Origin: a virus | Taxonomy: Duplodnaviria > Caudoviricetes | Strand: one strand, 5' to 3' | Length of the DNA: 64,000 bases | IMG/VR virus record: IMGVR_UViG_3300028591_000134 | Location: 37,233-101,232 of that record | In this document: positions 1 to 49,071 of the stretch, piece by piece | Layout of the letters: the number at the start of each line of letters is the position of its first letter | Position numbering within the stretch: position 1 is the stretch's first letter | Made by a program: the position numbers and the translations under genes | The notes under the pieces: model-generated | Told to the model about the DNA's origin: nothing | What the model saw: only the letters and a program-made list of their open reading frames with translations | Database searches by the model: none

Positions 1-3000
1 GAAATTCCGTCTATATTTTTAAATGAAATCTAGGACTTATTTAAAAAGCAGCTGCTTGTAGATTTAATACGTTGCGAAAAAGTAGAAGCGTTTGAAAAGT
101 TTTATTCTGATATAAGTCTTAAAAGAAAAAAGGAAAACGAAAGACTTAAATCTGAGAAGAAAAACCTAAAGCCTGTTATTACTAAGGAGATAGCTATAGA
201 CATGTTATATCAAAATGAAAAATATTTTGATTAGGTGTACAATAGTCTTTCAGCATCTCAAAGAAGTAATATTGAAACACAACTTTCTCAGCAAATTAAA
301 CCGTACAAAGATATTACTGTAGCTGATGCACAAGTTTTTATAAGACCTGCATTATATAGAAAGATAAGAATAGGTTTGGGCCAGTGGTCGTTTGAGCCGG
401 ATGAAGACGGATATTGTGACGAAGATGCATATAATATATTAGAAGGCATCACTGTTAATGAGGATGGATCTAGGACTCAAAACTTAGATAACGCCAACAA
501 TTGGATGAAGGACCCGAGCTTATAGAAATATGTAAAGCGCCTTGAATTATATCCTCTAAAGATGTCATATTTCCAAAACGATTCGCAACAGATTACGGGA
601 AATATATTTATAAATAGACCTATTTATAATAAAATGGCAATATTCCCGCTGTTTGCATTCTAGAGAGCAACTTCTGTTGGAGAAAAACTCTATAATAGAA
701 TGAATAAAGCTGGTAACGAATTGGATATGGTGTCGTTTAAGTCTGCTGTAAAAGTTGGAGCAATACAAAAAGGCCCGTAGGTGGTGAATACTGACGAATC
801 TACTGAGAGTGTATTAGGGTCATTTAATGATTTATTAAACTCTAATAGTGATTTAAGCTTAGATTATTCTACTGGAAAAGTTAATTCTAAGCGAGGTGAT
901 AATTTATTAGGAGTTACTATACAAGATCTGTCTAATATACGAATGCAATAGAATACTAAAGCACATGAAGCAACAATGCGTGCTATAGGTACTCAGATGT
1001 TCAAAATAGCATTCTCTAATATAATAGACGACGCGTATTACGGCACTAATAAGGCTGGAAGAAAATCAAGGAAAGGCTCTGATATAAAACGAGATATAGT
1101 AGATTGTATTAACGCTCTTACTAGAATAGGCGTAGAAAATCTAAAAGATAGGTTTTATAAGAATGGAGTAATAAACGAGAAAGCTGTAGAAGACTTTGTA
1201 AAACTTGTAGTTAAGAATAATGGCCTCGGTATAAGTGCAGAAGAGATAATATATAACGGCGGAACTGCAGCATCTTTGATATCAAGAACCGTGTTTGAGA
1301 ACAGTGCTACTGCGATTGTTAACGATGAGGTTGTAGATATAAAGACTAAAGGTGGTACAGCAATACAGCAATCACTATTCGGTTTTACTGGATACGGATC
1401 TTAGAATGTCGGGGTGTTTTCTTCAAACAACGGTAGAGAGTTAAAATGGTCTGCTTATGAGGGGTCTATGCAGGTAATGTTGAGTATGAACTTTTTTAAA
1501 GATGTAATACCTGACTTCAATAACAAAACATACGAACAACAAAGACAATGGTTGTTTGATAATAATATTATTGGAGATAACGCAAAACCGTTTGGAGTAG
1601 GCTATCGTATTCCTACACAGGGTATGTCATCAATGTTTGCGTTTTAGGTAGCAGATGTCGTACCACAACAAAATGGAGACCTCATTATAGTACCGAGAGA
1701 ATTTACTGCTCAAACTGGTTCTGACTTCGACGTTGATAAAATATTCTTGGCCACGTTCTCTTATAGACATGGCGTATTCGAGGATATTTCTGATAGCGAG
1801 TTTAAGAAAGGAAAGTATAGCAGCAAGACCGCATGGTAGAAGTCTTTGGATTATATACATTCTGTAGAAGAACGCGATAAGCAAGAACATCCAGATCAGT
1901 ATATTAGTCGATGGGACGATCTTGTAAAAGAATATCACGAACTTATTGATAATCCGTAGGGAGCTATTTCTAACAGATTATTATAGAATTATATAGATAT
2001 TATATCCGATCGTAGAAATTATGCTAACGCTAGAGCATCTATTGACGTTATTACAAATACTATACATAACGACCTGTTAAATCCAGTATTACGTAAAAGA
2101 CGCAAAACTTATATCCCAGGAATGACGGAACTTTTACCATCGTTCCAGGCTTTAAGGAAAATGGAGTTTGGTGTCGGTAAACAAGGTATTGCTCCGTTTG
2201 CATTAAATATTACAAACCTCGCTCTTACTCAGTTTACACATCTTACTATAGATTTCGGCGAGATCGGAGAAGAGTATGGATTTGGAACTTTAGACTAGAT
2301 TTACGGAAAAGACGGATTGCGTATATCCGACTGGTTATCTGCAATGGTAAACGCACATGTTGATGTGGCAAAAGATCCTTATGTATTTGACTTAAACGTT
2401 AATAAGGCTACTTACAATCATGCCAATCTTCTACTTAGGGCTGGTATGGGCGAGTCAACGTTTACATTTTTGGCACAACCAGCATTAAAAGATTTTGCTG
2501 AAAACTTGATAAATTCTGGAGGATTATATGGCGATAATATAGACGGAGACGTCATCGAATCTGAAAATAATAGTAAACGAAGAAAGAACATATACAAGTA
2601 GAAAGTTAGATATTATAATTCTATTTTAAATAATATACTTTAGAATTTTGATCTTTCTAAGTAGTTAGAAGTTAAAGCGAAATCCGCTCACGAATATTTT
2701 GAGTGGATGATAATGACTGCAAAAGAACGTAGAGATAATGGTTACGATAAAGACGCTCCAGCTCGTCCAATTGAACGTAAATACATATTTGACGAAAATT
2801 ATGGAAAACAGTCTATTTTAAACTTTGCGACTGGAGCAGATATAACAGAATAGAATGTCGATAAAGTGATAGATAGTATAATTTTCTAGATATCTGCGTT
2901 ATAGACCTTTATGGAACTTGATGATTTTGCAAAGTCGTTATCTTCTCTTGTTCAGTGTTCTCGAGTAGATAATAGAAAATACGGAAATACTATTGCGCAA

Positions 3001-5607
3001 AACATACAATACCAAAATAAAGTGGATAACTTTAAATATGGAGATTCCAATTTTACAATAAATGAACCTGATTTCGAAAAGACTGTAGCACCTTCTAATC
3101 CTGAAGTAGGAGTAACTAAATCAGATATATCTAGGGCAGCGTTAAAGCGATATTTTGGCGAGTTATATTTAGATGATAAGTTGGATAACGCAACATTCTG
3201 GATAAAAGAGATATTATCTACTCAATTGTTTTCTGCCACACCTTAGTATGAATCTATATTTAAAAATATACTCGGTATTATTGGTGGGTATACTAGTTTT
3301 GGAGGATTTAAATCTGTATTTTCTGAACAATCTATAAACGCTATTTCCCAAGGTTTGGATAATGTCATGAGATTTAACGCTCTTATGGCGTATGGTCCGC
3401 AGATATTTGAGAATGCTCAAAATAGTGATCCGGATACAAATATGATAGATCTTACTTTGGGAGGAGATATTTCCGCAGTATCATAGAAATTTGATCAACT
3501 AGTTAATGGTAGGAACAAAACGGAATCTATTTTCTAGAGATTGTCTAATTTTATTAGAGACGTTAGGGAGAATCCGTATGAAGAATATTCTGAAGATTTG
3601 GTCAACGATGATGGTGAAATAATAAACGACCTTTTATTATATCTATCTCCGTAGACGCCTAATGAGAAATATCCTATAGGAAAAATGAATTTCACAGAAT
3701 CGCAAACAGATAATAACTCTTCTCAAGAAAGGAGACTTATATCAGCGTTTGCTTAGCTATTAAGCCATAATTCTGAACGAGTCCGCAATCTTGCTCAAGA
3801 CTTGGTATTTTATGCTTATTATTCTACATACGACACCAACGTCGCAAATTCATTTTTTCATCTTGTTCCAATAGAATACAGGAAACAGTATGATGATTCG
3901 CTGAAATTTGCATTAAAGTTGATGAATTCAAATGATTCAAGACTTATAAATAAAGTTTTATAGGATGTGTCAGGATTAACAGATATATCCAATACTGAAG
4001 ATATAGAAGCATTAGCCGCATCTAATATATTAGATGTTCTATCTAGAAACTATTGGTTTGATAGTTCTATAGTACCAATTCACATTCTTACAACTAATCC
4101 TACTAAAAACGGATTCCAATCTTCAACTAGAGAAGTTTAGGAATTTACAGGTCATGATATTTATGACGAAGAGAGTGGAAGGAGTTTCCCAACATTTATT
4201 GCTACTACACGAGTTAGCGGCGATAGTAGGTTTATTAAAATTAGAAAAGGAACCTCATCATTCCTTTATAGGAAAATAGGTGTTGTAGATAGAACGTATA
4301 AAGAGGAAGAAAATGCTACAGATAACGCTAAGAAAAATCGCGTAAAGCCTAATAAGTATTCTATTTATATAGCGGTTCCTAAAGCTGGAATACGATCCGG
4401 AAATATAACCCAATTTGAATTATATTGTAATTATAGTACTTAGTCTATCTTTGATACAAATATTCTCGATGTGGATTATGCTGAAGACAATGTGCGTAAA
4501 GAGATAAACGAGTATCTTTAGGACGGTGATTATAAACTGAATTTAATTTGGGATTATGATGAAATTCCGGATATGTATTTATCCTCTAATACCAAATCCT
4601 ACGTAGATACGTCTACCCCAGCAGATCAGCCAGTTAAACGATCTATAACTGGCGCTACAATTTTAGGAAAAAAGAGTGGAGAATATTCTGGACAATATAA
4701 TGCGGATATAACTATAGATATAGTTCAGAGTCCTACAGAAGGTGATGTTGAGAGGCCTAATATTAAAAAGCTTAAGAACGGTGTAGAAAACAATGTTGTA
4801 GAATTGGCGTTGGTTGGTGATATGTCTGATACAATTAAGAAGATAAAAGATATTAAACAAGAAAATGTTAAAATTCATTTTTCTACTGTCAGATTTGATG
4901 GTCAATTTGATGTCGGCGATGAAGAAATAAACGACTATATTAATCAACAATTAGATATCTATAAACAGTTCTATTTTGGAGACGATTTGGACTCTGCATT
5001 AGAAGCAAAACGTTAGGCTCTTGTTGCCGATAAACGCACAAAGCAAAATGTAATTCAGAATAAACTTAACTCTAGAATATATGAATTTGTATTACAACTT
5101 ATTAATTCTGGAGTATCTATAGATAAGTTTAGTGCCGCCGTTTCTAATGACAAGACACATTTGGCAAAGACTGTTATGTATTTAAAATCTCAAATCGGTC
5201 TTAATTTTGGCTCTGACAATATGTCGATATATGTCGATAAAGAGTTTACACAAAAGAAGAAAAAATTCAATAGATTGTTGTCTCAACTTGGCGATATTGT
5301 TGGAGGATCTGAAAGCTCAATAGAACAAGACTAGAATATAGATTCTAGTATAGATGTTCCAGTGCAAGAAATAGATGGAATTTCTGAACAAGCTGCTGCA
5401 TCAAATGTTTCTAGAATTAGTAGATTTGAATCGGCAACTGGATTTGATTTATCAGAAAGTTCTGAAGAATCTAATGATGTTCCTCCTATATTGAAATAGG
5501 TTCAAGATGTTGAGCAAGATAAGGAAAATAGTAAAAACCAGGAATGCGCTGGCGGGTCTAGATTTAGTAGATTTGAAAACGCAACTGGTAGTTTTGAAGT
5601 AGAATAA
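1..5607 (+). CDS. Virion-associated RNA polymerase subunit of crAss-like phages (catalytic beta'-like part), 5'-partial, TAG read through
   Basis: All + ORF fragments (235, 976, 1414, 2317, 2911, 4573) are in frame 1 and end in TAG. Spot-checked stretches show no TAA/TGA until 5605-5607. Contains GYRIPTQG and the catalytic QTGSDFDVDK motif (1711-1740). Confidence 0.9.
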
Positions 5608-5609
5608 TT

Positions 5610-8600
5610 ATGATTTGCCCATATTATAGAAATAAAGAAGTATTTGACGGCTTCAATGAGATGATTGAAGCGTTTGGAGGCAAACCAATGACCGAAGAAG
5701 AATTCAGGGACGGTGAGTTAAGAAATTAGCGCACCGGCCTTGACTTCTAGGCAATGGAAGCTGCCTATGTAATGTATGATAGAAATGGAGGTAATCTATT
5801 AGATAAAACTCCTTAGGGCAAATAGTCCTTTCTATTTCAAACATTATTAGATTATTTTGATGGCAATAGAGCTAAAGCTATTGTTGCTAAATCTAATGTA
5901 TATTCTGACGAATTCTTCAACTGGTTTGGAGATTGGACCGCTGAAGAGAAAGAAAACGTATCTAAGGTGGTAGACGAAAACGGAGAACCACTTGCTGTGT
6001 GGCACGGTTCTCCTAATTCCGGCATACAATAGTTTAGTAGAGATTTAATAGGGACTACTTCAGATCAAGGCGTTTTTGGAAAAGGTTTTTATTTTACTCC
6101 ATCAAAATCATACGCAAGACAATATGGCGATAATTTATATTTAGTATATTTAGATATAAAAAATCCTATATACAAACCGTCAGACTCCGATGTGATTGGC
6201 AGAACATACGAGGAAGTGTCTATGGATGTTAATAAAGCGTATTAGTCTATGTATGATAGATAGATAAAACGTGGTAAGTCTGAACAAGAAGCTAAAAACT
6301 CCGCCGAAAGACACAAGAAGATGGTACAACAATTTAATGAACGAATGAACTTGTTGATACAAGAAAATCATGACGGCGGTATATATTTAGAAAGAACAAC
6401 AAACCAAATAAAGCCATCAGAAGAACAAATTGTTGTAGTAAATCCAAATCAAATAAAGCATATAGAAAATCTTGGTACATGGTCTACTGAAAATGATAGC
6501 ATCTATAAAAGCAAATTAGATGTTGCAAATTTGGAAGATGTAGATTATCTGGATTCTATTACTTATAGCGATCTAGGTCAAAATATATTCTCAAGATTGG
6601 TGAGTAATCTATATGTAAGTTCTGATGAAATTATTTCTTAGTTAAAAGCTGTTGGATGCTTTTCCGCGTCAAATATATTTCTTTCAGAAATGTTATAGAG
6701 GCATTCTATACCTGTAATACTTGACGAGGCGTTAGAAAAAGATACTGCAGCAGAAGCAAGATTTGATAAAAATAAAGGATTTGTATATATTGCTGTAAAT
6801 CCGTACTGGATTGAAGGTGGTATGCTATCTAAAGAAAATTTCGGACGCATATTCCTACATGAAGTCGTTCATGGAGTAACTATAAAGGCCATATACTTCA
6901 AGTCCAATAAATTCGAATAGTCTTTTGCAAACCACAACAATAAGATGTGGAGAATCGCGAAAAATGCGTTTGATAAATACATAGGTGCGCACAATTCTGA
7001 TATAAGTTTCTATGCAATAAACGACGAATACGAATTTGCTTCAGAGTTTATTACGAATAGTTCAGCTAGAGAGATAATATACGGGTTGTTTGAACGTTTG
7101 GATAATGATTCTCAAAATAAATTCGTTACTGCATTTAAGAATTTTATAAATAGTATAGTTCGTTTGTTTGTAAATAAGGATTTATTTAAAACAAACACTT
7201 AGAAGTTGTAGGAATTCCAAAAACAATTTATTGATTATCTATCTGGAGTAGAAACTGTATAGAACGGAAATGTAAATATAGATTAGGTTAAACGTGCTTA
7301 TTGGAAGTTTAACAAGAAGCAACTGGTAGATTAGGCTTTTGGTGAAAATATTACGTCTTTAAGCCACGCTTATAAAATGGCCACAATTACTTTAAGTAAA
7401 CCGGCTAAAGACAAAGTATATCGATTTGAAGATGTCGCACAGAAGTTGGAGGTGAGGGTTAAGGCAATAAGGACGTCATCTTTGCCTAAATCTGACAAAA
7501 CAAAGCTTATAAATTCTACAAATTCGTAGATAGAAATGTTTAGAAATCAGCAGCTTTCCAAGTTTGTAGCCATTACTTCTACGTTGAGACAGATAATTCC
7601 TCAATTGTTGGATGACGTTAGGGAAATATTAAATATAAGTAAAGACGATTCCAGAACTCTTCCTTCCAAAGATTATATGTATCAACTACATAGTAATATA
7701 GGAACTTATAAGAATATTGCTGAAATCCTTGGAGGATTAATAACCCAAAATACTACAAGAGAACAACTATTGACTGAGTATAATCGCGGTCTTCCTGAAG
7801 ATTAGAAATTAACAGACGACGATATAGAAGAACTTAAAAATTCTATAAACGATTTAAAAAATATAACTTCAGATGGAGAATCTGCTTTAAATATACTCGG
7901 AGAACGAGCAGCAGTAGAGGCGCTTAAGAAAAAAGCACAAGACGAACAAACCGCCGAGTAGATGGAAAAATATCTTGAAGAAATATCTGAAAATCCCGCG
8001 TTCGATGACGATATTGGTTGGTTTGCTGCAAATTTCGGTGCTGCAGATTCTCAATCTAATGAGGCTCTTCGAGCTTTAGCTTCTATGGTAAATAGAGCAT
8101 TATAGAAAGCTGATGATGCCACGTTAGATAAAACTTTAAAGTTACTAAAGTTAGAAAGAGATCTTAAGTTTGGTGAATCTGTTGTAGATTTATATGAAAC
8201 TGATGATAATGGTCTGACTACCGGATATTTAATCCGAAAATTAAATTATGGTAAGTTCTATAGAAATTACGATAACGAGTTAATTAGGATAAATAGATTG
8301 TTCAACAAGGAATTTAAGAATACAGAAGGTTACTATCTTGTAGAAGACACTTAGAGAATTGCTCCAGATATAGATATTGTAATTTCAAATCAGTAGGCAA
8401 TAGACTTAGGACTAAATATTGTAGACAAAAACAATAATCCTGTCGAGTGGACAATAAGATAGGCGTGGAACGAACTTAGGAGTAAATGGCTTTATGAAAA
8501 TTGTGAGCGAAAGTATACTAAAGCATACTATGACGCTTGGAATAAAGTTCCTCAAGTCGCAAAAGATGCACTAGACGCAATAAACTCAGAAATATTGTCT

Positions 8601-11600
8601 ATATTATCTCAAGAAGGAGTTCTTGATGATGATGGTCATTATCACTACGATAGATTGTCAGATAAAGATTGGAAAATTCTAGAGGATTTGTGGATACAAA
8701 AGAAAGTACTTCGTTCTGATTATGATTTGTTTGGAAATAAAAAAGAAGAAGGTTCTATTCCATGGAAAATTGCAAAAGCTTTACAATAGTTAAACGAAGA
8801 TTTATATCACGGAAAAGATCGCAAAATTTAGAAAGATGTTTCTGCTTGGAAACTAGCATTAAATAAAGAAATAGAAGAATGCGGCGGCATTGATAAATTT
8901 AATGCTTGGAAATCTGGAGAAAAAAATCACGGCTTCAACGTAAAGCGTTATAAAAAATGGCATCTTAGAAATTCTAGACTTGAATTTAAGAAGGATTCTG
9001 ATGGCGAGGCTATAATTTTTAAAGATATCGAAGACGCTATGTAGGGCTATGATATAGATTACGGGCCAGAATATGAAGAGTTAAAGGAATAGATAAATAA
9101 AATATTAAAACCGTACAGAGCGCAAAACGGTGAGGTAATTGCGCAGGAAATACCAGAATCTGTTAAAAATACTTTATTGGATATTTATTCTCAACAAAGG
9201 TAGATTAGAGCATAGGTATATGAAAATAATCCAGCATTGGGCGAATTAGCTGCAAAAAAATCAGAAATATATAAATCGTTTATTGTAAACGTTGATACAG
9301 AATATTTTAAAGCATTAAAGAAAGAATTATCTAAATCTGCTATCGACGATGAAGGTTAGTTCGATTAGGACTTATATGAGGCAATGTTGGATTCTTACGG
9401 TTTTCATGAATTTGACGACCTTAGTGGTATGGATTTGGGATTTGTACCATATAGATGGTTACAGCGAATGGAAGCCGTAGATAAAGATAAGTATATGGAA
9501 TATGTTCCAGGTGATGCTTGGATAGAAAAAGTAGACGATGAAGAATTTGTAAATTCTAAGTATACTGAATTGTCTAAATAGGAAGGCAATGAAGACACGG
9601 CATTTATACCTAAAGCTTTTGACAATAAAGGAAATAAACTTTATGATAATAGTGAAGCTTTTTCTAAATTTGATAAAACTTCATCTAATTATTCTTCTAC
9701 TTTAAGAGCTATGTATGATGGCGCTCTTAATACTATGCGTGAATCCAACGAAATGCAATCGAACAGACAGTATGTTGATAATTATCTACTTCCGTAGATT
9801 ACGGGATCCATATTTAAAAGAATGAAACGTCATCCGTGGTTTAATAGGCACTTGGCTATTATTCGTTGGATAAGGCATAAACTTGGTGGCAATTTTGTAG
9901 AAACTCGTCCAGACAAAATAACAGTAGTATTTAGGGCAATTAAAGAATTAATTGGTCTTGGTATAAATTCTGACGACTTATCTCAAGCTGGATTATCACA
10001 AGCTGCTGATACTACAGATAGTGAAGGAAATACTAAAGTAAGTAATGCCATTCATGGGCAATATGCTGATGGTAGAACATTTCATATACTTCCTCAATAT
10101 TATACAAGACGTATGGAAGATCCATCTTAGATTTCTTCCGATCTTGTAAATATATTAAGTAATTATTATAAAATGTCCTCATACTACAATCAAAAACTAC
10201 AAATAAAAGACGATTGCGAAACTATTGTAGACTTTTTAAAAAATAGGGGCGTCAAACGTAAAAAATATGTAGTTGCTGGAGATTATGTTGACTCTAGGGT
10301 TTATTCGTTTGCTTAGAAGTTTCTTGAAATGAATTTGTATGATATGCGTCGTACAAATAAGAAGATAAAACTTGGTAAACTCGAATGGAATTATTCTAAA
10401 ACTGCGTCTACTTGGAAAAATTGGGCTACGGCTAGAAACTTGGGTTTAAACCCAAAAGTCGCCCTTACTGGATTTATGACGTCTATGGGTATGCATATTA
10501 TAAATTCTTTAGTTGGTCAAAATTATAGTATGAATGACTCGGGATTCGCTTTTGCAGAATCTATTCGTAGACTCTTTTAGAGTTGTATAGGAGTTAGGTA
10601 CCTATGTAATCCGTCGCTGTCTAACGACGATTTGATTGTAATGGCTGAACAATTTAATGTATCTAGCTAGGCTGAAAGAAAATTTGAGGGATCTAATAGA
10701 AATCCTATTTTATAGGCTGCTTATAGACATAGTGTATTTGGATTTATGTCTATGGCTGATTTTTGGTCAAAAACTCAAATAATGACTGCGGTATTGCATA
10801 ATCACAGGTATATAAACGGACAATTCTTATCTAAAGATGATTTACGCAGCTCTAGATATAAATATGCTTCCGATAAAGATTTTAAAAAAGCTTTAGCTGA
10901 ATGGAAAAAAGGTCCGTCTTTATACCATTTATTACATAGTAAAGATGGCGAGCTTACTATCGCAGATAAATATAAAGACGCGTGGTTACAATGTAAAGAT
11001 GTTGTAAAAGATAGAGTACAAAAAACTGCAGAATATGCAGATGGAATGGCTACTCCTCTTTAGAAAGCCGCAATAACTTAGAGTATAATAGGTAGCCTTA
11101 TATTAATACACCGTCAATATCTACCTCTTATTCTTCAACGTCATTGGGGTAAACGAGTATATGACTATGATTCGCACATGTATAAAAACGGAGTATTCAG
11201 AACTTTATTTTAGTTCGTCACTGAAATGATGAAGAATAATCTTTTATTAGGCATCGGCTGCGGAATGTTCACTGGATTTGTATTTGGAGGAACTATCGGA
11301 TCTGCATTAGGCGCTTCCGCTGGAGTTTTCTTAAGAGCATATGGAGCATCATATGGTTCAAATAAAAGCGCAAAAACTGTAACAAAAGAATTCTTTTCAG
11401 ATTTTTAGAGCAAAGAATTGTCAATGTAGTCTTATGCTAATAGATATGCTATGAAAGAGGTGTTTTTTGTAAATCTTATAATGTATACAATAGTTTAGCC
11501 TTTGGTAGCAATGGCATGTTCTATTGCAGATGATGACAAAGACGATAGATGGTGGATGCAAGCTTTATTATACTCCTTACGAGCATTTGAGTGGGAATTC

Positions 11601-11933
11601 TATACTGCCTATAGAACAGATGATGTATTAAATAACATTAAATCTCCGTCTGCAGCACAATCTATTATTGACGGATTAGAAGAACTCGCATTTACTGCTT
11701 CTCCACAAACAAATTTCCTATAGGATCCGTCATAGTCTTGGGATGCTGTTGTAGATGTTGTTAATAAAAATAATAGAACTATTAAAAAGGGTGCATATAA
11801 AGATTGGACTTCATTAGAAAGAGCCTTGTTTAAACTTACACCGTATCATAATGTTTGGGAACAATATAAAGATTCTAAATCTAAACGAAAATATCTTGAA
11901 AACCAAATTATGAGAATTAAAAAACCAGAATAA
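5610..11933 (+). CDS. Giant (~2107 aa) virion/cargo polyvalent protein with ART-like and zincin (HEVVH) domains, TAG read through
   Basis: ATG 5610 (MICPYYRNKEVF); + fragments 6321-11723 are all in the same frame and end in TAG; TAA at 11931-11933. Motifs SKVVDENGEPLAVWHGS...GFYFT...EQIVVVNPNQIK and FLHEVVHG (HEVVH at 6858-6872). Confidence 0.85.
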
Positions 11934-16429: not shown

Positions 16430-17029
16430 TTAAAAGGGCAGGTCGTCAGCACCTGTAGAGTCTGCAGTCACCGGAGCACTGTTACCAGTGAGCGGGTCGT
16501 TAGGCTTCTCTTCATCAGCCTTCACGGGACGCTCCAGAAGATCGTTCTTCCAAAGCTTAATCTGCGACTCTTCTTTTGCAACTTCCATAGATTCAACGAA
16601 AATACCGTTCTTAGATACCTGAGTATAACCCTTCTTATCATAAGTTACCTTAAGACGTAAAGGACTATTATCACCATCATTAAGACACATCTTAGCCCAA
16701 GTGATCATTTCGATAAATGAAGAACCTTCAAAATCGTTATGACCACCCTTAACTGCATCAATGACCTGCAGAATACGACCGAACTGCTGATTATCACGAC
16801 GCTGTAAATCCTCGTCGGTAGTAATCCACATATTCTTCTCGTTCTTCCACTCAGTCATAGTTGCCGTCTGGCCTTGTTTATTCTCAAAGATAATCTCTAA
16901 GAAATCACGACCCTGAGGTGTCTTATTTACGTTTACCTCTTTCAAGGTAATATTCTCGTTGATGCCTACAGGCATATATGAGGAGGTAAACTCCTCGTTA
17001 CTTGTTGTTGCTGTTTTTGTACTATACAT
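16430..17029 (-). CDS. Probable single-stranded DNA-binding protein
   Basis: In the replication cluster; flexible acidic tail ending DDLPF. Confidence 0.7.
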   Translation of the reverse strand: MYSTKTATTSNEEFTSSYMPVGINENITLKEVNVNKTPQGRDFLEIIFENKQGQTATMTEWKNEKNMWITTDEDLQRRDNQQFGRILQVIDAVKGGHNDFEGSSFIEMITWAKMCLNDGDNSPLRLKVTYDKKGYTQVSKNGIFVESMEVAKEESQIKLWKNDLLERPVKADEEKPNDPLTGNSAPVTADSTGADDLPF

Positions 17030-22037: not shown

Positions 22038-22829
22038 CTAATTCGTCTTGCAAGACGCTAATAACTTTCCATACTTATTATAGACTTTGACTTCAATACA
22101 ATCTTTGTCTTTTATCGTCTTTGCACGACTACGTAATATGTCTTTTATAACATTCAATTGCGTAAATTGTGTCTTTCCCGCGAAAGGATAACCGATGACA
22201 ACAGGATCTCCTTCTTTTTCATACATGACTTGACCGTCGGGTCCCTCATATACGAGAAAAACCCTATAGAAGGGTTCTCTTATGCTAACTTTCCCGTATG
22301 CTCTGCTGAGAAAGTTTCGTACATATTCGCGGTGTATGTACTGTTGTGTTTTATGCTGTATTTCCAGTGCCTTTGGAAAGAGATCTTCTGCTAGCTCTCT
22401 TTCCGTAGGTCCTGGGTTTTTCTTTTCGAATTTTTGCATCTTATGCTCTTCATAAGCATGCATTAGTGCTGCAAATCCCAATCGCTTGGGCTTATTTTGA
22501 GCGGTCATCTCAGCTATTTGGGCTCGCGTGAGACGTATCTGATACTTTATTCGAGGAGGAGCCTTACGGGCTATGGTTTGCGAGGCAATAGGGACTATTT
22601 TATTCTTTTGGATGCTAGATTTTATTAAATTCATATTCCTCGTATCGCTGTCATAATGCAACATAAATTGAGCATTAAATGCGCGACATAGTTCCCTTAG
22701 AGGCATCCTATGTAGCATACTAACGAACTTTATGCCTCTCTTGGTTGTAAGAAATTTATCTATTTTTTTGATAATTTCCTCTTCTTTCTGTATCTTGTTC
22801 AGTCTATATTTGATATCTTTCTGTTTCAT
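22038..22829 (-). CDS. Basic hypothetical protein (ends in TAG)
   Basis: 263-aa ORF. Confidence 0.7.
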   Translation of the reverse strand: MKQKDIKYRLNKIQKEEEIIKKIDKFLTTKRGIKFVSMLHRMPLRELCRAFNAQFMLHYDSDTRNMNLIKSSIQKNKIVPIASQTIARKAPPRIKYQIRLTRAQIAEMTAQNKPKRLGFAALMHAYEEHKMQKFEKKNPGPTERELAEDLFPKALEIQHKTQQYIHREYVRNFLSRAYGKVSIREPFYRVFLVYEGPDGQVMYEKEGDPVVIGYPFAGKTQFTQLNVIKDILRSRAKTIKDKDCIEVKVYNKYGKLLASCKTN

Positions 22830-32722: not shown

Positions 32723-32932
32723 AATATTAAACCAAGTCCGTTCTCTTCTTTCCCTAAGTCTAAACGATGGCTAATGTCACCAAAATTCCATTAATAGGGT
32801 TACCCGGTTGCTGTTTATTCTACCAACTTATTTGAACAATTATCCGCATCGAATGCCTTGGATTACTCCAAGTAACGGCTGCGCCTGTAATACTTGGTTT
32901 ATGATTTTGTGGACCTGGAGGGCTAAGTTATA

Positions 32933-32961
32933 TGCAACCATATTGCTCCACACATCCGTTA
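32933..32961 (+). promoter_or_regulatory. TGCAAC-N18-CGTTA promoter for the antisense HNH gene
   Basis: TGCAAC-CATATTGCTCCACACATC-CGTTA, 14 nt before ATG 32976. Confidence 0.7.
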
Positions 32962-32975
32962 TTAAAATAAAAACT

Positions 32976-33473
32976 ATGTTAATAGAAGTTATTTGTAAAG
33001 AATGCGGTAAAGCATTTATGGCTGATTCTCGTGAGATAAACCGAGGACATGCGCAATTTTGTAGTATTTCGTGTGCCATTAAGTACAGAAACAAGACAAA
33101 TCCATATCATAAACACATATGTGTTCAATGTGGTAAAGAATTTGAAAGTAAAAGTACAAAAGTTAAATACTGCTGTAAGAGTTGTAAATATAAATATTAC
33201 AGATCTCTTATGAAAACAGAATTAAATGGCACTAAAAAATTACAGGACATTCTTAAAGAATTACCTTGTGAAAATTGCGGATGGAACATAGGACCACGAG
33301 ACGTTCATCATATAATTCCCGTCTCGGAAGGCGGAAAGAATGAGTTTGACAATCTCATTACACTATGCCCAAATTGTCATCGACTTGCTCATAGAAACCT
33401 TCTTTCGAAGGACAAGTTGATTGCACTTGTTAACTTACGGACTATCTCATCATCTTATGACATTGCTGCATAA
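32976..33473 (+). CDS. HNH endonuclease with zinc-ribbon repeats, antisense to its host intron
   Basis: CKECG..FCSISC, CVQCG..YCCKSC, CENCG..DVHHIIPVSEGGKNEFDNLITLCPNCH. Confidence 0.9.
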   Translation: MLIEVICKECGKAFMADSREINRGHAQFCSISCAIKYRNKTNPYHKHICVQCGKEFESKSTKVKYCCKSCKYKYYRSLMKTELNGTKKLQDILKELPCENCGWNIGPRDVHHIIPVSEGGKNEFDNLITLCPNCHRLAHRNLLSKDKLIALVNLRTISSSYDIAA

Positions 33474-33864
33474 GAGTTGGGCGCTCGAGCTGGTAATTAA
33501 GAGAACTATATCTCTCCAGTAGTCTCTGCACTTTTCGAGAGTGTACTCTCGACTTAGCTCAGGATTAGCATGCACAATGTTAGTTTTGAGCTATTATTAT
33601 GTTTAGCTTTCCCTGAATTCACCCAATTTTGTCATATACATTACTGTATAAGCGAACCCTATGATTCGAACCCTCGTCCAACAGCTTATTCTGGGACACG
33701 CTAAGATTGTGAGCAAGTGTGGGAGCGACCCACAAATGCCCTAGGAAGCATTCTAAGGCGTTCTGAGGCGTTTTATCTACCTGGTGTGGGTAGCTAATCC
33801 ACAAAAAGTTTTAATGCGCTTCGGAGGCCTTAAAATGCGTTGTATGTTGTGCACGGTGATATGA

Positions 33865-39712: not shown

Positions 39713-39747
39713 AAAAAAATAAAAGGGGACCCGTTTGGATCCCCCTT
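39713..39747 (-). terminator. Intrinsic terminator of the leftward late operon
   Basis: GGGGATCC-AAAC-GGGTCCCC followed by a T-run on the - strand. Confidence 0.8.
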
Positions 39748-39749
39748 AT

Positions 39750-40496
39750 TTAACTTTGCCCTTTAAGGGTATTATATTGTTGTATGATATCTTCATACTT
39801 TAAGTTTTGATGCATTTCAAAAAAGTCTTGTATTCCTCTATGATCCTTAGCAGTAATGCCTCTAACGTTTATCTTCCACAGCCATTCTTCAAACGATTTT
39901 GTTATATAATGGTCTATATGAATATCTTTTGGGTATACTTTATTGCACAATGCGTTGTGATTACCATGTATGAAGTGTAGTTTTAATTTATGCATATTAT
40001 AGCATACTTTAGTTATAAAACCATGTTGTTCGTCATATTTAGTAAATCCACATTGCTGTGTAAATATCTCCCATATAGGTTTATCATGTTCTGGTTTTAA
40101 GATGTGTCCAGAATAACCATAGTTGACCCAAGGTATTATAAGAGCTTCATAGTCTTTATATTGTTCTAATGAACCATTTAATTGTATAAATTCATCTGCA
40201 TCTATAGAAAAACACCAATCAAAGTCGTAGTTTTGTTGTATATATAGCAGACCTCTTATTATACATTCCATATGGAATATTCGACTTTTCTTTAACTAAT
40301 CTGTTTCATTTCCTAGAAGATCTCTAGCAGATGCCAGAATAACTTGAGGATATTTAGCACATATATCTTTGTGTGAAGATGATGTTATATCTTCATATAA
40401 GAATATCTTATCTATTCCTATATTTATATGATGTGTTATAAAATCCTCAAGATATTCATGTTCATCTTTAATTAGAGATAATATGCAAGATGTCAT
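39750..40496 (-). CDS. Glycosyltransferase (GT-A fold, GT2/GT92-like), one TAG read through
   Basis: IKDEHEYLEDFITHH..IG and WCFSIDADEF are in one frame across TAG 40298-40296. Confidence 0.82.
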
Positions 40497-41206
40497 TGCT
40501 CTGTAGGAGCACCGAGCGTATAAAGCCCATTTTGTTCGTTTTTTACTACAAGACCCCAAGCAGAACAATAGGCCTCTGATGCAGTTTGCGTAAATACTTC
40601 TAACGCGCTATAACCAGAATTAAGATTAAATGAACGTTCTTGCTTTTCAGGGGGAGTTTCGGATTCCATAAATATCTAACTCGGCCCTTCAGTATAAAAC
40701 GCGTAATCTCCTATAGAGGTTACTGTATCTGGAACAAATACCTAAAACGTCTGCTAATAGAACATATAATCTTCTATATATGAGTCGTCTTTTAGCTCAT
40801 AGAAGAATACAGTAGTTGCTGGAAATTGTTGTCCACTAAAACTTGGCGATCGCAAATCCTCCCCTTCTATATAATCAAATTCCTATTCAACTGGATCTAT
40901 ATTAAATACGTCGGCAGGTTTTGAAGCAAGCGACATCAAAGTGTTCTTATCGCAATAATACACTCGTTCTATATTAGAATTAATAGATTGGCTATTAGCA
41001 TCTACTATCGGAGAAACATAACCTTCTACTTCAACCATAGACAAAGCCACTACATATTTCTTTTTTGCTTCAGATTCTGACTCTTCTACAAAAGTATTCT
41101 AAACTGGTGTAACAGATGTTATAGAATCAAAAGTATACTATATTATACCCCATTCCCCTGGTTTTTCATATGCCCTAATCGGCTAATGTGTATAATTTGT
41201 TTTCAT
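40493..41206 (-). CDS. 237-aa protein with a BspA-like LRR unit; 7 in-frame TAG, absent from the ORF track
   Basis: Translated by hand: ...VFVPDTVTSIGDYAFY...IFMESETPP; ends in TGA overlapping the GT start. Confidence 0.75.
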
Positions 41207-41208
41207 TT

Positions 41209-41421
41209 TTAATTATTTAATATGTTTATATATCCTTCTGCATCTTCCCCTAGAGGCTCTAATATATACTCCCAATCCATAAAATCAGCGTTTTCACACA
41301 CATCATGACGATACATAATCTCTTGTTTTATATCTTCAGAGTATTCATAATTATCAGCACTTATGAGGGAGACAAATATGAAGTTTTTAAGCTGTTGTAT
41401 ATCATCTTCCGACTGATTCAT
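41209..41421 (-). CDS. Small acidic hypothetical protein
   Basis: ORF track; start uncertain. Confidence 0.5.
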   Translation of the reverse strand: MNQSEDDIQQLKNFIFVSLISADNYEYSEDIKQEIMYRHDVCENADFMDWEYILEPLGEDAEGYINILNN

Positions 41422-41573
41422 ACCAATTTCCTCCACTGATTAAATACTCTTCATCCCTTGAGATATTCGAGATCTCGCTCGTTCCCGTAAACCTCTCGTT
41501 CAAAGCTGATATTTTTATAGGCTTTATGTCCATGTTAGTATTTATTAAATTTATAAGGTATATATAATAGCTT

Positions 41574-42128
41574 TTATTCTATCGGCGAAACGTATTCATC
41601 CATTATAGTAGGAGTTACGTCAGCTCGTTCAACCAAAAGATCGTCTTGGGAGAGGACTTTTTCCTCATGTACGTCGCCGAATCCCCGTTCGACAGCTTGA
41701 TCATCTCCAGACTCTCCGTCTGCAATACTTGTGTTATATCCGGCAGAGGATCCTGATATTTCGTCCTCAGCACTTCTTCCTGTTTCTAAGTCATTTTTAA
41801 GCTCATTTAATGCATTTTTAACCTGCTCTTTTACATCTTTTTCCTCCTCTTTAGGAGCATTCTTTTTTAAGAATTCTGCAAGTTCATCAGGCTTCATCTT
41901 AGACATTTCAGCCCACTCATAATTCATCAAATTGCGCATATAAACTTGATATTGAGCGGCTTTTACACGATCTTCATTAGTTTCTAAGCCTTTCTCAAGC
42001 AAAGCTTTATACTTTTCTTGATACTTTTGTATGGCCTATTGAGCTTCTTCTATCGTTATTTTATGATTATCTCCAGCAGCACGAACTAATTCGCCGTCAA
42101 TATCGTAGATATTGGTGTTATTTGTCAT
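41574..42128 (-). CDS. Hypothetical protein (184 aa), one TAG read through
   Basis: MTNNTNIYDIDGELVR... is in frame with the 41574-42002 fragment. Confidence 0.75.
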
Positions 42129-42196
42129 TGTTGTCAAAATTTAATATTGCTATACCACTATGATTCCATACTCTCCTTATTTCAGGATCGTCATCA

Positions 42197-42736
42197 TCAT
42201 AAAAGTGGTTCTAAAGTCTGTTTTTCGTATCTCGTTGTATTATATCCATTGCTCTTAGATACGCCTCGTCGTTCAAGCATTCTTTCAACGTGGTATGTGT
42301 ACATTGAACACTCACGTTCTTCAGGTCTTCCGTCTTCATTGATAGTAATATGAAAGTATTTTTTGTTATTTTTCCAAGTTTGGTATGTTTTGAATGCTTG
42401 TTTTCTCTCTATTCTATTGCTATAATGATGTATATATTTGAGCATCTGTTCTCCTGTTACAGCCCCACATGCGCTCAAATTAGCTAACTTTTCTACAAAA
42501 GAAGAAACACCGTCTTCCCCAAACTTATCGTGGAGTAGATGGTATTCCTACAAAGCCTACTAAAAGTACTAGTTGTCCTAATCATATATAGGTTCCAAAT
42601 CTAAGATATAACAACTATTTATTGGGTTATTGTGAATGTAGAAGTATTTACAATTATCTGTTACTGGTATACTAATTGCCTACAGACTTAAGAAGTCTGC
42701 GTAATATAGTACAGCATTCAATTCTATATTTGTCAT
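42197..42736 (-). CDS. Hypothetical protein (179 aa), 6 in-frame TAG
   Basis: ATG 42736 overlaps the upstream TGA and is in frame with 42197-42478. Confidence 0.75.
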
Positions 42737-43134
42737 TTTCTGGTCCAACTGTTATATATACATTGGGTAAGCCAGCCTACAAAATAGGCTAAAGCTTCAT
42801 TAGAACTATCAGGGATTACATCTTCATGTATATACGAATATATATCCATAGCTGCATGTAAAGCTTCATGAGCAGCTGTGTTTATAAGATCTAGTTTCTT
42901 ATCTATTCCTACTATATTTGAATATCTATTAAACTTAATTAATACACAGAATTTATTATCGCTCTTACGTTTACATCTAGCAGTAGTAGCTTGAGAGTTT
43001 ACTATAGCATCGTCTAATTCGTCTTCATTACAATACATGTAATCTTCTTTTAGATCTTCTAAAGTAACATCTTTATTAGCTATTACTATATCTACGTCGT
43101 ATATAGTACTATATATGTCTATATGTTTATTCAT
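42733..43134 (-). CDS. Small zincin-like protein (HEALH)
   Basis: AAHEALHA...NEALAY. Confidence 0.7.
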   Translation of the reverse strand: MNKHIDIYSTIYDVDIVIANKDVTLEDLKEDYMYCNEDELDDAIVNSQATTARCKRKSDNKFCVLIKFNRYSNIVGIDKKLDLINTAAHEALHAAMDIYSYIHEDVIPDSSNEALAYFVGWLTQCIYNSWTRK

Positions 43135-43202
43135 GTCTTACTAATATATATAGTCTATACCCACCCCCTATAGTCCCCCTCCCACAGGGAAATTTGGTCC
43201 TT

Positions 43203-43231
43203 TAACGTTAAAACGAGCCGTTATAGTTGCA
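43203..43231 (-). promoter_or_regulatory. Leftward late promoter TGCAAC-N18-CGTTA
   Basis: TGCAAC-TATAACGGCTCGTTTTAA-CGTTA on the - strand. Confidence 0.72.
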
Positions 43232-43255
43232 ATTTAACTAAATTTGAAATTTTAT

Positions 43256-43284
43256 TGCAACCGATGTAGTGCGTAAACGCGTTA
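43256..43284 (+). promoter_or_regulatory. Rightward late promoter TGCAAC-N18-CGTTA
   Basis: TGCAAC-CGATGTAGTGCGTAAACG-CGTTA, 22 nt before ATG 43307. Confidence 0.72.
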
Positions 43285-43306
43285 AGGCGTCGTAAAATTT
43301 AAAATT

Positions 43307-43735
43307 ATGGCAAAGATATTACGTGTAATTGAGCCGTTCTTCATCGCAGAAGTCGGTGATAAGTTTGAATTTGACGCTAATAAAGGCGTCTATGTTATAG
43401 AGAAGAACGAAGAGTTCTATAAAATTGCAGGCGATACTAGCAGTGAGATTAACTCATCGTATTCTTCAACATTCGAGATTTCAAAGAGTTATGCTCAACA
43501 GCTCTTAGATGAGGGATACCTCGAGGAGTATGTAGAGAAAAAGGATAAGAAAAACGATAAGATGTTCGTAAACGTGTTCGACGAGATCAACGGACTTATA
43601 GAAAAATATGAGTACGATCTTGCAAACGTTGATGAAGAGCTTAAGAATGAGCCGGAGTGTGTAAGACTTGAGAAAACCACAGTGCTTACTAATCTTTTAA
43701 AGGTTCTGAATTACCTTAAAGACTTGAAGAAATAA
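43307..43735 (+). CDS. Hypothetical protein
   Basis: 142-aa ORF, first of the rightward operon. Confidence 0.8.
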   Translation: MAKILRVIEPFFIAEVGDKFEFDANKGVYVIEKNEEFYKIAGDTSSEINSSYSSTFEISKSYAQQLLDEGYLEEYVEKKDKKNDKMFVNVFDEINGLIEKYEYDLANVDEELKNEPECVRLEKTTVLTNLLKVLNYLKDLKK

Positions 43736-44160
43736 TGGACAAAGAGAAGACAATAGACCAATCGGCGTTAGCAGAAAGTGTAGCGAAGAGTATACAATAT
43801 GAATTTCTTGATCATTTTCTCGTTAAACCCCTGGATCCGGTCAAAGTTAAGAAAGAGTTTAGTAAACCTGTTTCAACTGGTACACCCGTAGAAGATGCAA
43901 ATGGAGTTAAAGCAGAAGACTTTGACAGTGTTGAAACAGAGGTAAAAGAGGTTGATTCTGATTATAGGACAGCTGTTGTAATAAAACTCGCAAAGTCTTA
44001 TGAGAAACAACTTGCAGATCCGGAGCAAAACAAATACCTAAACGAAGTCATAAACGTTGGAGACGTAATTGTAATAAGGGAAACATCTGGTTTACGATTC
44101 GATCTAGTGAAAGATAGTCGATTAATTAGGTATTACGATATTATCGGAATTGTGAAGTGA
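43735..44160 (+). CDS. Possible GroES-like co-chaperonin
   Basis: LDHFLVKP...AVVIK...INVGDVIV...LIRYYDIIGIV follows the GroES pattern. Confidence 0.55.
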   Translation: MDKEKTIDQSALAESVAKSIQYEFLDHFLVKPLDPVKVKKEFSKPVSTGTPVEDANGVKAEDFDSVETEVKEVDSDYRTAVVIKLAKSYEKQLADPEQNKYLNEVINVGDVIVIRETSGLRFDLVKDSRLIRYYDIIGIVK

Positions 44161-44372
44161 TAACAATAGAAGACGTAGCTAAAGAAGTAGCAAAGAGAAC
44201 AAACTTAGATATAGATCTTGTTTCTACTATATGTAAACATCCATTCTCATATACAGTAGACTTGATGAAAGATGTAGATGAAACTAAAGATATACTATTC
44301 AATGAGTTGTTCAAGTTTAAACTGAAGAGGCGTTTTAAAGAAAATAAGACAAACGAATATAAATCCAAATGA
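44157..44372 (+). CDS. HU/IHF-like DNA-binding protein
   Basis: IEDVAKEVAKRTNL...ILFNELFKFKLK. Confidence 0.6.
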   Translation: MITIEDVAKEVAKRTNLDIDLVSTICKHPFSYTVDLMKDVDETKDILFNELFKFKLKRRFKENKTNEYKSK

Positions 44373-44737
44373 AGAATTTATTTATTACAGAGCGCGGTGC
44401 TATTGAGATGGTGAACAATGAACCCGTATATAAAAACTCAGATCGTAATGCAATCGATAATGTATATCTGATTACAGAAGATACTCATATAGTTTACAAC
44501 AGATATGACGGAAAACGCATCGAACTCAATGCAGAAGCTGGAGATATTTTAATTAAGTTCTACGAAAGTACGTTTTCATCTCCGATTATAATTGTACATA
44601 GTGAAGAGTGGAAAAACAACATTCTCGCATACAATGAGGCGGAGCAGAAACGTAAAGAAGAGTGGGCAGCTAAAGCCGCAAAGAGCAACAATGTGGTTAC
44701 AGAAGAAATATCAGAGTCACAAGATTTAACAGATTAA
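44369..44737 (+). CDS. Hypothetical protein
   Basis: 122-aa ORF. Confidence 0.75.
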   Translation: MKNLFITERGAIEMVNNEPVYKNSDRNAIDNVYLITEDTHIVYNRYDGKRIELNAEAGDILIKFYESTFSSPIIIVHSEEWKNNILAYNEAEQKRKEEWAAKAAKSNNVVTEEISESQDLTD

Positions 44738-44741
44738 TATT

Positions 44742-44993
44742 ATGAAGAAAAAGACATTTAAGCCTTCCTATGTTGTAGATCTCGATGAGATTGAAACTCT
44801 TGCAGACATTCCTGTAGCGTTTGCTCTTGCGAAGCACAATGCTCATCTCGCATTAACAGATGAAGAGCTTCAAGATATAATAGATGCAGCTACTCCTAAA
44901 ATCACATTCATATATTGTAAGTGTGAGTGTGCTAAGAAAAAGCCTTGGTATAAGAGGTTCTGGAATTGGCTGACTAGGAAGAATAAGAAGTAA
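44742..44993 (+). CDS. Hypothetical protein with basic amphipathic C-terminus
   Basis: Ends KKKPWYKRFWNWLTRKNKK. Confidence 0.75.
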   Translation: MKKKTFKPSYVVDLDEIETLADIPVAFALAKHNAHLALTDEELQDIIDAATPKITFIYCKCECAKKKPWYKRFWNWLTRKNKK

Positions 44994-45234: not shown

Positions 45235-45269
45235 CTGGTCCATGGTGTAATGGTAGCACGGGAGGCTCT

Positions 45270-46264
45270 TATAGTAATTTAATGATTAATTGAATGAATT
45301 TATGACAAATAAAATATACGAATTGACTGACGAACAGTTTGTTAATTTGATTAAAAACAGTACAAATATATCTGAAGTTTTATTCAAACTTGGTTATACG
45401 GTAAAAGGCAACTCTTGGGGGTTTTCGCAAGTTCGAAAACGAATGACCGACTTAAACATTTCAATGTCACTTTTTAAAGGCAAAGGAGCCGCCATTGAAA
45501 AAACTAGAAGTGGCGCATTGACTGCAGAAATGCTGTTCAAAGAGAATTGCAAACACAACAGAACTTGTCTCAGAAGATTTATTGTAGCCAATGACATTCT
45601 TCCGTATAAGTGCGCAATTTGCGGTACTAAAGAATGGAACGGTAAAACTCTTAGTTTAGAATTAGATCATATAAACGGAATTAATAACGATAATCGTTTG
45701 GAAAACTTAAGATTTCTTTGTCCTAATTGTCACAGCCAGACTACAACGTATGGTAGTAGAAATCAACAGCGAAACGAATCCAAGTATGAAATTACAGAAG
45801 ATCTCAGACAGCTTGTTGAATCTACTTACGAAAAAGAAAAAAGTGTAAAACGGGTTTCTGCAGTATTAGGCATGCGTAGATGCGTTGTAACACAAATAGT
45901 AAACGAGTCTGGTCAAAAACATTCAAACCAACAATATGTTATACGATACGATGAAAACTGGAACGAACTTAAACGATATGGAAGTTTAAGCGAATGTGCG
46001 AGAGATTTAATAAACGCTAACGAAATAAAAACAAATCACGTATCTACTGCAAGGCGCTCGATACAAACGAACGCAAACAAGAAACAATTGTGGTTAAATA
46101 GTTATTGGATTACGTTGGATGGTAGCGGGATAATAAATAATCCGTTATTAGAATCTTCTCTAATTGACTCGGAAAACAATGTTGACGAGGCGCAAGCGAA
46201 AGCAGCGTGACAGACTGAACGAGAAGACTGGGTTTAAGACCTGGATGCAACAGTCGGGCAAAAG
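45270..46264 (+). mobile_element. Group I intron inserted after U35 of the suppressor anticodon
   Basis: Exon ends in U and intron ends in G; guide GTTGGA (46114-46119) pairs with TCT|AAC with G.U at the junction; P3 TCTTCTC/GAGAAGA, P7 GACTG/CAGTC. Confidence 0.82.
45302..46210 (+). CDS. Intron-encoded HNH homing endonuclease
   Basis: CAICG...LELDHINGINNDNRLENLRFLCPNCH; homologous to the tRNA-Leu intron HNH. Confidence 0.92.
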   Translation: MTNKIYELTDEQFVNLIKNSTNISEVLFKLGYTVKGNSWGFSQVRKRMTDLNISMSLFKGKGAAIEKTRSGALTAEMLFKENCKHNRTCLRRFIVANDILPYKCAICGTKEWNGKTLSLELDHINGINNDNRLENLRFLCPNCHSQTTTYGSRNQQRNESKYEITEDLRQLVESTYEKEKSVKRVSAVLGMRRCVVTQIVNESGQKHSNQQYVIRYDENWNELKRYGSLSECARDLINANEIKTNHVSTARRSIQTNANKKQLWLNSYWITLDGSGIINNPLLESSLIDSENNVDEAQAKAA

Positions 46265-46343
46265 AACCCTCCAGGCCCGGGTTCGATTCGATGGTGGGCC
46301 GACCAATACAGTGAAGACTGAAAACTTATAAATTAAACACATT

Positions 46344-49017: not shown

Positions 49018-49071
49018 TTTAAATTACTAATGCAACATGAATAAACTAATTCCAGTTAATTAAAACGAATT

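Follow-up and report, generated by a model that had tools for sequence, protein, structure and literature searches.

The two gene arms of the virus described here diverge from a single point, and the gap between them contains two back-to-back copies of a bipartite sequence, TGCAAC-N18-CGTTA. This arrangement raises the question of whether the sequence serves as a promoter for both arms and, if so, what reads it. The original prediction described it as a phage late promoter, probably read by an ECF sigma factor that the phage itself encodes. The DNA studied, referred to below as the window, is a stretch of 64,000 nucleotides comprising bases 37233-101232 of a single-contig virus record of 101,232 bp; positions are those of the window unless the genome is named.

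The nearest named relatives of this phage belong to the Crassvirales, family Suoliviridae: Bohxovirus and the phage share 74% DNA identity over 1 kb, and the sigma factor of cr130_1 (Oafivirinae) is 56% identical to that of the phage. The Suoliviridae, also called "delta" crAss-like phages, rank among the most common phages of the gut, and to our knowledge no member of the family has been cultured. We found no paper in the literature that describes Suoliviridae promoters or the role of the annotated "sigma-W factor."

With TAG read as a sense codon in all open reading frames (ORFs) of the genome, two gene arms emerge, with their only divergence point at 43134/43307. The plus arm runs from 43307 across the end and start of the record to position 11933 and contains the structural genes together with two giant ORFs that resemble polymerases and include 75 and 45 TAGs; these represent the giant virion RNA polymerase ORFs of crAss type (1-5607 and 5610-11933). 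The minus arm extends from 43134 down to about 12270. PHROGs assigned almost no function to the genes flanking the promoters, and names were taken by synteny with GenBank cr130_1; on this basis, the forward arm includes a tail protein, terminase, and portal. It also carries a lysin-like gene, and a dUTPase is among its first genes.

Our main explanation, to which we assign a probability of roughly 0.6, is that the sites are ECF-type promoters read by the phage sigma and drive both arms as well as genes for HNH homing endonucleases. What has been observed is the motif together with its conservation, placement, and orientation, its presence in the same genomes as the sigma gene, and the order of the genes; promoter activity, start sites, timing, and the identity of the reading sigma are inferred.

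Four exact copies of a bipartite motif

TGCAAC-N18-CGTTA occurs exactly four times in the window, compared with 0.02 occurrences expected, and none of 100 shuffles reached this number. This confirms the predicted set of four exact, equally spaced matches, and each does stand before a gene: the sites are all oriented toward an ATG, at distances of 14, 19, 22, and 68 nt. A motif scan of the whole 101,232-bp genome, which the original prediction had proposed, showed the exact motif nowhere else. With the hexamers relaxed to GCAAC..CGT, six of the seven matches in the genome have a spacing of 18. In a scan with a position matrix trained on related phages, this genome left out, the four sites score 21.8-24.8, the next match scores 13.9, and shuffled genomes reach 12-20. 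That next match, at 22719-22752(-), falls within the shuffle range and inside an ORF and was not counted. The shorter variant that had been listed at 49031-49058(+) did not hold up as a member either: it reads TGCAAC-N17-AGTTA, without the C of CGT, and its matrix score of less than 10 falls short of the maxima reached by shuffled genomes (12-20). In five relatives, the gene behind it lacks a homolog.

Two of the four sites form the pair at the divergence point. The putative forward promoter (core TGCAACC-N17-CGTTA, an exact match at 43256-43284(+) with a score of 24.0) heads the structural/late arm, with the ATG of the first gene 22 nt downstream. The putative reverse promoter (43203-43231(-), also an exact match, score 21.8) is arranged back-to-back with it, the -35 hexamers lying 24 nt apart, and heads a 3.4-kb minus-strand unit. 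Because the spacers of these divergent copies are unrelated, the pair does not represent one duplicated sequence.

The other two sites precede genes for HNH endonucleases. The first (32437-32465(-), exact match, score 23.8) is located 12 nt inside the group I intron of tRNA-Leu(UAA), in sense orientation, and 19 nt before the ATG of the HNH gene within that intron (31806-32417(-)). The second (32933-32961(+), exact match, score 24.8) lies 14 nt before the ATG of another HNH gene (32976-33473(+); Pfam HNH, E = 1e-14), which is antisense to a group I intron core at 33427-33673(-). With one of these sites in sense and the other in antisense orientation to the intron, it is the endonuclease ORF that the motif accompanies, not the ribozyme. 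The sequence CACACAT is common to the spacers of both sites. The 5' exon of the second group I intron (core 33427-33673) ends in a T-loop-like sequence, GGGTTCGAAT.

Conservation in related phages and before endonuclease genes

The first protein of the plus arm (43307-43735) carries the domain DUF7399. A locus search with this single protein returned no loci, and an alignment of its homologs was needed; with this alignment, 80 loci were retrieved from IMG/VR, whose DUF7399 proteins are 39-56% identical to that of the phage. The relatives compared exclude the closest ones (sigma about 80% identical). In all 77 loci with enough upstream sequence, a site of the form T[GA][CA]AAC-N17/18-CGTTA is present no more than 150 nt from the start codon, with a -35 block of TGCAAC in 73 loci and TGAAAC in 4. 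The actual distance to the start codon is 23-42 nt. These forward sites contain 48 distinct spacers; the 43 distinct spacers of 18 nt have a mean pairwise identity of 0.44, and the base following AAC is C in every one of them. The back-to-back reverse copy is kept in 69 of the 77 loci, and the remaining 8 have the forward copy alone. Spacing in the relatives is N17/18 for forward and N16-18 for reverse sites. Across 15 complete relatives, we counted 40 exact sites versus 5 with a reversed-pattern control. Two invariant blocks, joined by a free spacer of fixed length and always directed toward the next gene, give the element the look of a sigma-dependent promoter.

These comparative data already refute the notion that the four matches arose by chance or are duplicated leftovers devoid of function. 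The CACACAT shared by the spacers of the two HNH-associated sites is compatible with duplication, and those copies may be paralogous. However, shuffling does not yield four matches, and the blocks are kept in 77/77 orthologous loci while their spacers diverge, which leaves this notion practically no probability.

In more distant Suoliviridae (Boorivirinae and Uncouvirinae; sigma 30-34% identical), each genome has at most one GCAAC-N16-CGTTA site, which is not above control. Two of these sites stand at the head of the late operon; as possible counterparts of the motif they are suggestive only. Four cultured crAss-like phages of other families (crAss001, crAss002, DAC15, and phi14:2) contain no exact site.

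Additional exact sites in the relatives are found ahead of endonuclease genes, at distances of 7-28 nt; these genes represent at least three families, namely HNH_3/zinc-ribbon, NUMOD4/I-HmuI-like, and LAGLIDADG-like (with Pfam scores near the cut-offs). A further gene behind such a site has an HNH-like motif by eye and is without a Pfam hit. The placement noted in the original prediction, with two sites at the divergence point and two before intron HNH genes, is the same family-wide, and it includes free-standing endonuclease genes. This would be the behavior of a portable promoter, and the sharing of an upstream signal by unrelated mobile genes speaks for a role in expression, not for an operator or structural RNA element. 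One relative (G003) has a cassette homologous to that at 32933, with the same upstream 15-mer. This 15-mer, TGTGGACCTGGAGGG (32907-32921(+)), stands ahead of the motif in both genomes, and the endonuclease gene that follows in G003 is a different one; it seems that the upstream border of the promoter-bearing cassette is preserved when the nuclease domain is swapped.

The motif could alternatively be a site for some other DNA-binding protein (an operator, or a site for an origin-associated or endonuclease-related factor) and no promoter. The back-to-back pair amounts to a large imperfect palindrome, and an adjoining conserved G5-N6-G5 element could, together with AT-rich repeats, belong to an origin. 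In contrast, single directional copies stand just before the start codons (7-28 nt) of unrelated mobile genes, eight related loci have the forward copy only, and the conserved blocks, 17-18 bp apart with free spacers, are promoter-like and oriented always with the downstream gene. We consider a site of this kind improbable.

The G5-N6-G5 element lies at 43160-43183 (minus strand GGGAGGGGGACTATAGGGGGTGGG), in the leader behind the reverse promoter, and is accompanied by AT-rich repeats at 43100-43160. At this position, 35 of 55 distinct relatives have at least two runs of G4 or longer, and other lineages have the complementary form, CCCCCTAAGAACCCCC. This flip in orientation suggests a site that acts at the DNA level, perhaps an origin or a protein binding site.

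Two further conserved features were noted. The first is a box of sequence CG(T/A)A that starts 7 nt after CGTTA in forward promoters (CGTTAnGnnnnCGtA; 43285-43300 and the orthologous positions), about where transcription should start. The second, outside the window at genome positions 16511-16539, is a GGCAAC-N18-CGTTA sequence inside an ORF, where it encodes ..AATQKQVIYVN... Its ortholog is an exact TGCAAC-N18-CGTTA site in 8 of 15 relatives, located 33-37 kb downstream of the forward promoter, and the C before GTTA is retained even where the amino acid differs. This site may represent an internal promoter or may reflect mere protein constraint.

Gene order around the suppressor tRNA

The forward promoter is followed by four small TAG-free genes (43307-44993(+)), which encode the DUF7399 protein, a homolog of the "chaperonin" annotated in cr130_1, and two more proteins. 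Next, 1.95 kb downstream of the promoter, comes an intron-split amber-suppressor tRNA(CUA) at 45236-46305(+). Its 995-nt intron (45270-46264) is inserted between anticodon bases 35 and 36 and carries an HNH gene. Joining 45269|46265 gives the anticodon CTA, and this is the only junction that leaves a U before the intron and a G at the intron end. TAG-rich genes begin at 47038, the first of them with 16 TAGs. The same order is found in relatives: an unsplit tRNA(CUA) is located 1.9-2.8 kb past the start of DUF7399 in 43 of the 80 related loci and in cr130_1, and in 14 genomes ORFs before the tRNA slot contain 0-3 TAGs per 400-550 codons versus 8-31 beyond it.

The tRNA of cr130_1 is annotated as "tRNA-Gln" (NC_055901.1 67368-67441); ARAGORN assigns it the anticodon CTA, which makes it an amber suppressor, at the same place as the intron-split one of this phage. 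The HNH gene in the suppressor-tRNA intron (45302-46210(+)) is, unlike the other two intron HNH genes, without an ECF-type motif, and it lies in sense orientation within the unit of the forward promoter.

On the opposite strand, six ORFs (39750-43134(-)) lie between the reverse promoter and a strong intrinsic terminator (39722-39747(-); an 11-bp stem with 6 G-C pairs, then a T-run) that closes the unit. This unit contains 15 in-frame TAGs, which are all but absent from the remainder of the minus arm. Its TAG-rich ORFs are 42197-42736, with 6 TAGs, and 40493-41206, with 7; the region 42281-42736 is homologous to cr130_1 gp40. Given the TAG-rich genes beyond the forward promoter and inside the reverse unit, both promoters head parts of the genome that depend on TAG.

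These observations can be combined into the following model. Host core RNA polymerase carrying the phage ECF sigma (29480-30043) would bind the four sites and start a few bases after CGTTA. From the forward promoter, transcription would proceed through the four TAG-free genes and the amber-suppressor tRNA into the arm of TAG-rich structural and virion-polymerase genes. The reverse promoter would give rise to the 3.4-kb unit with the TAG-rich genes of the minus arm, ending at the strong terminator, and the two further copies would allow independent expression of the HNH homing-endonuclease genes lodged in introns. The original prediction had gone on to a cascade from an early sigma through these promoters to the suppressor pre-tRNA, its splicing, and TAG-containing late proteins. 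The order of promoter, TAG-free genes, suppressor tRNA, and TAG-rich genes in 14 genomes fits such a cascade at the level of architecture; its temporal steps stay conditional.

More tentatively, the genetic-code switch in Suoliviridae (TAG as glutamine) might be gated transcriptionally by the phage ECF sigma, acting via the forward promoter. The first products of this promoter would be the four TAG-free proteins and the suppressor tRNA, which in this phage needs splicing, and only after the tRNA is available would the TAG-rich late genes to either side of the divergence point, among them those for the virion RNA polymerase, become translatable. Homing endonucleases of several families would have captured the same promoter and so ride the late program. 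The location of the suppressor tRNA in the first stretch of the promoter's transcript, seen in 14 genomes, provides a concrete hypothesis for the timing of stop-codon reassignment.

A sigma-70-like sequence, TTAACA-N17-TATAAT (11/12 matches), is located at 44853-44881(+) inside ORF 44742-44993, 350 nt before the suppressor tRNA, and could drive the tRNA independently. That the tRNA alone might be served in this way counts against our main explanation, as does the presence of only four strong sites for about 100 kb.

The sites could instead be promoters of the giant virion-packaged RNA polymerase, in which case they would mark early units and not late ones. The phage does encode a polymerase of this crAss type, and a common point heading both arms might be what such a polymerase requires once injected. 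However, the TAG-rich genes would then come first in transcription, and the bipartite AAC/CGT form with fixed spacing is a signature of sigma-dependent recognition. Moreover, the virion-polymerase transcripts of the crAss-like phage phi14:2 have no detectable common upstream motif (bioRxiv 10.1101/2020.03.07.982082). We regard this assignment as very improbable.

The candidate sigma factor and likeness to known systems

The candidate reader of the sites is a 187-residue ECF sigma (29480-30043(-)) with the Pfam domains Sigma70_r2 and r4_2. It passes the NCBIfam model TIGR02937 with 84.4 bits against a cut-off of 42.9 and matches no named equivalog. Its presence, part of the original prediction, is thus borne out, and a homolog is found in all 15 complete relatives. 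Each of these has exactly one ECF sigma, making 16 of 16 genomes of the lineage with this phage included, and 261 homologs were found altogether, many of them on contigs of about 100 kb. Down to 52% identity, no change is seen in a sigma2 segment (SFGGWLRIL..A.DYLR) or in the sigma4.2 helix (P..GT.KS.L.R.R), in keeping with the invariant motif. No ECF sigma was found in crAss001, crAss002, DAC15, or phi14:2, the four cultured phages of other families. The joint occurrence of sigma and motif agrees with the model; because it is confined to one clade, however, their association is effectively a single evolutionary event and does not constitute independent support. The gene itself is not new, as GenBank already labels the cr130_1 copy "sigma-W factor." Judged from sequence, the phage sigma is probably the reader of the sites.

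As a rival reader we considered the homolog (54842-55252) of cr130_1 gp54, which is annotated as "RNA polymerase sigma factor." It was rejected as a DUF7841 protein without a sigma domain, and the GenBank annotation of gp54 looks doubtful.

A typical ECF sigma is encoded in an autoregulated operon together with its anti-sigma factor. In this phage, no site scoring above 10 is present near 30043-30300, upstream of the sigma gene. The gene therefore lacks the autoregulation that is usual for ECF sigmas, which counts against our main explanation, and the sigma must first be expressed by another route. Instead of the motif, the sigma upstream regions of six genomes contain a different conserved element of about 45 nt (30044-30200(-); ..CAGC.(G/C)GT.TCTGT.ACAGGAGTGACACCTTAATAAC.. 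in the relatives), which lies just upstream of the sigma start beside a tRNA-like minihelix. Cleavage of a longer RNA may give rise to the sigma mRNA. ORF 29061-29483(-), of 140 aa, overlaps the stop codon of sigma, and two membrane helices are predicted at its N terminus. It has no family match and no similarity to the cr130_1 ORF of the same size and place (gp14), and it could encode an anti-sigma factor.

An AAC at -35 and a CGT at -10 define ECF promoters. All four sites have this layout, in agreement with the original prediction of a canonical ECF form, and the blocks are invariant across the 77 related loci; the four elements are very probably ECF-type promoters, as far as sequence can tell. 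Their AAC-N18-CGT spacing is within the validated ECF range. The forward sites, with N17-18, are at the long end of this range, and this counts against our main explanation. Counted in the same way, the sigma-E promoters mapped with S1 in S. coelicolor read xxCAAC-N17/18-CGTC (PMC6767563), and the ECF promoters of B. subtilis (sigma-W/M/X/V) combine tgaAAC with CGTA, CGTC, or CGAC at an optimal spacing of 14-17 (PMC5758882). The four sites do not have the form of Bacteroidota primary-sigma promoters (-33 TTTG, -7 TAnnTTTG), and the corresponding pattern TTTG-N17-21-TAnnTTTG has no match in the whole genome, compared with 1-6 per shuffle in 20 shuffles. TAnnTTTG alone occurs 124 times in the genome, by our estimate roughly as often as chance would give. 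Matches to generic sigma-70 hexamers are likewise at chance level (56 versus 62 +/- 8.5).

The motif is of a generic ECF form, which ECF sigmas of a Bacteroidota host might also read, and this too counts against our main explanation. The elements could thus be genuine ECF-type promoters that depend on one or several host ECF sigmas, with the phage sigma having other targets or reinforcing the host factor. The AAC/CGT form is common to many ECF regulons with overlapping recognition (PMC5758882; PMC6767563), a CGT-box class exists in Bacteroidota (PMC9723704), and the phage sigma gene has no motif upstream. Against host sigmas, the phage ECF sigma, its recognition helices invariant, is present in exactly one copy in every motif-bearing genome of the lineage, and no other enriched motif was seen that could be a target of this sigma. 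If stress-induced host sigmas were needed, the late program would furthermore be hostage to the state of the host. We consider reading by host sigmas unlikely.

Under the main explanation, with the phage sigma as the reader, the motif provides a simple testable model for the handover of host RNA polymerase to the late genes. As a family-wide promoter motif it is also a handle for annotating transcription units. The sigma/promoter pair, being compact and canonical, could be put to use in Bacteroidales as an orthogonal expression part.

Like canonical ECF promoters, the sites are bipartite, with AAC and CGT blocks at fixed spacing and no extended -10. The reverse promoters of relatives are often TGCAACTTTTT, with a T-tract right after AAC that recalls the spacer T-tract of sigma-V-type promoters (PMC5758882). 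Unlike canonical ECF promoters, they are phage-borne, have a -10 of CGTTA, and head the two arms of a 101-kb virus as well as homing-endonuclease genes. The system further departs from canonical ECF systems in that no autoregulatory copy precedes the sigma gene and no recognizable anti-sigma was found.

A counterpart in Bacteroidota, the host phylum of cultured crAss-like phages, is the ECF-type class SM6 of Flavobacterium psychrophilum, a sigma-ECF promoter class with a CGT box that was mapped by transcription start sites (PMC9723704). SM6 belongs to a host regulon (type IX secretion and membrane proteins), and which of seven ECF sigmas reads it is undefined (PMC9723704). The likeness claimed here is confined to the CGT box and the promoter class and does not extend to identity of the motifs. 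The middle/late promoters of phi14:2 (Steigviridae) have a primary-sigma-like -35/-10 and are read by sigma-70 holoenzyme (bioRxiv 10.1101/2020.03.07.982082). Both crAss-like phages would use host polymerase and a conserved phage motif before homologous middle/late genes, but phi14:2 has neither an ECF sigma nor a TGCAAC..CGTTA site.

The lytic phage phiEco32 is a precedent for a phage that has both an ECF sigma and promoters for it: its own ECF-family sigma redirects host core polymerase to phage promoters (cited in PMC7881722). Sigmas of the phiEco32 type are described as an outlier subgroup with atypical promoter elements (PMC7881722), whereas the Suoliviridae sigma and motif are of the canonical AAC/CGT kind.

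The sites before endonuclease genes find their closest likeness in phage T4, where mobile ORFs also carry the promoter type of the resident phage directly upstream, independent of the host gene or intron. In work credited to Gott et al. in 1988 and Edgell et al. in 2004, T4 intron endonuclease genes (I-TevI and others) are reportedly expressed from intron-internal phage middle/late promoters. The T4 late promoters depend on gp55, whereas those here are of ECF type, and here the endonucleases belong to at least three families and are in one case antisense to the intron. The Suoliviridae sites may thus offer a clean case of unrelated homing-endonuclease genes adopting the promoter of the phage in which they reside.
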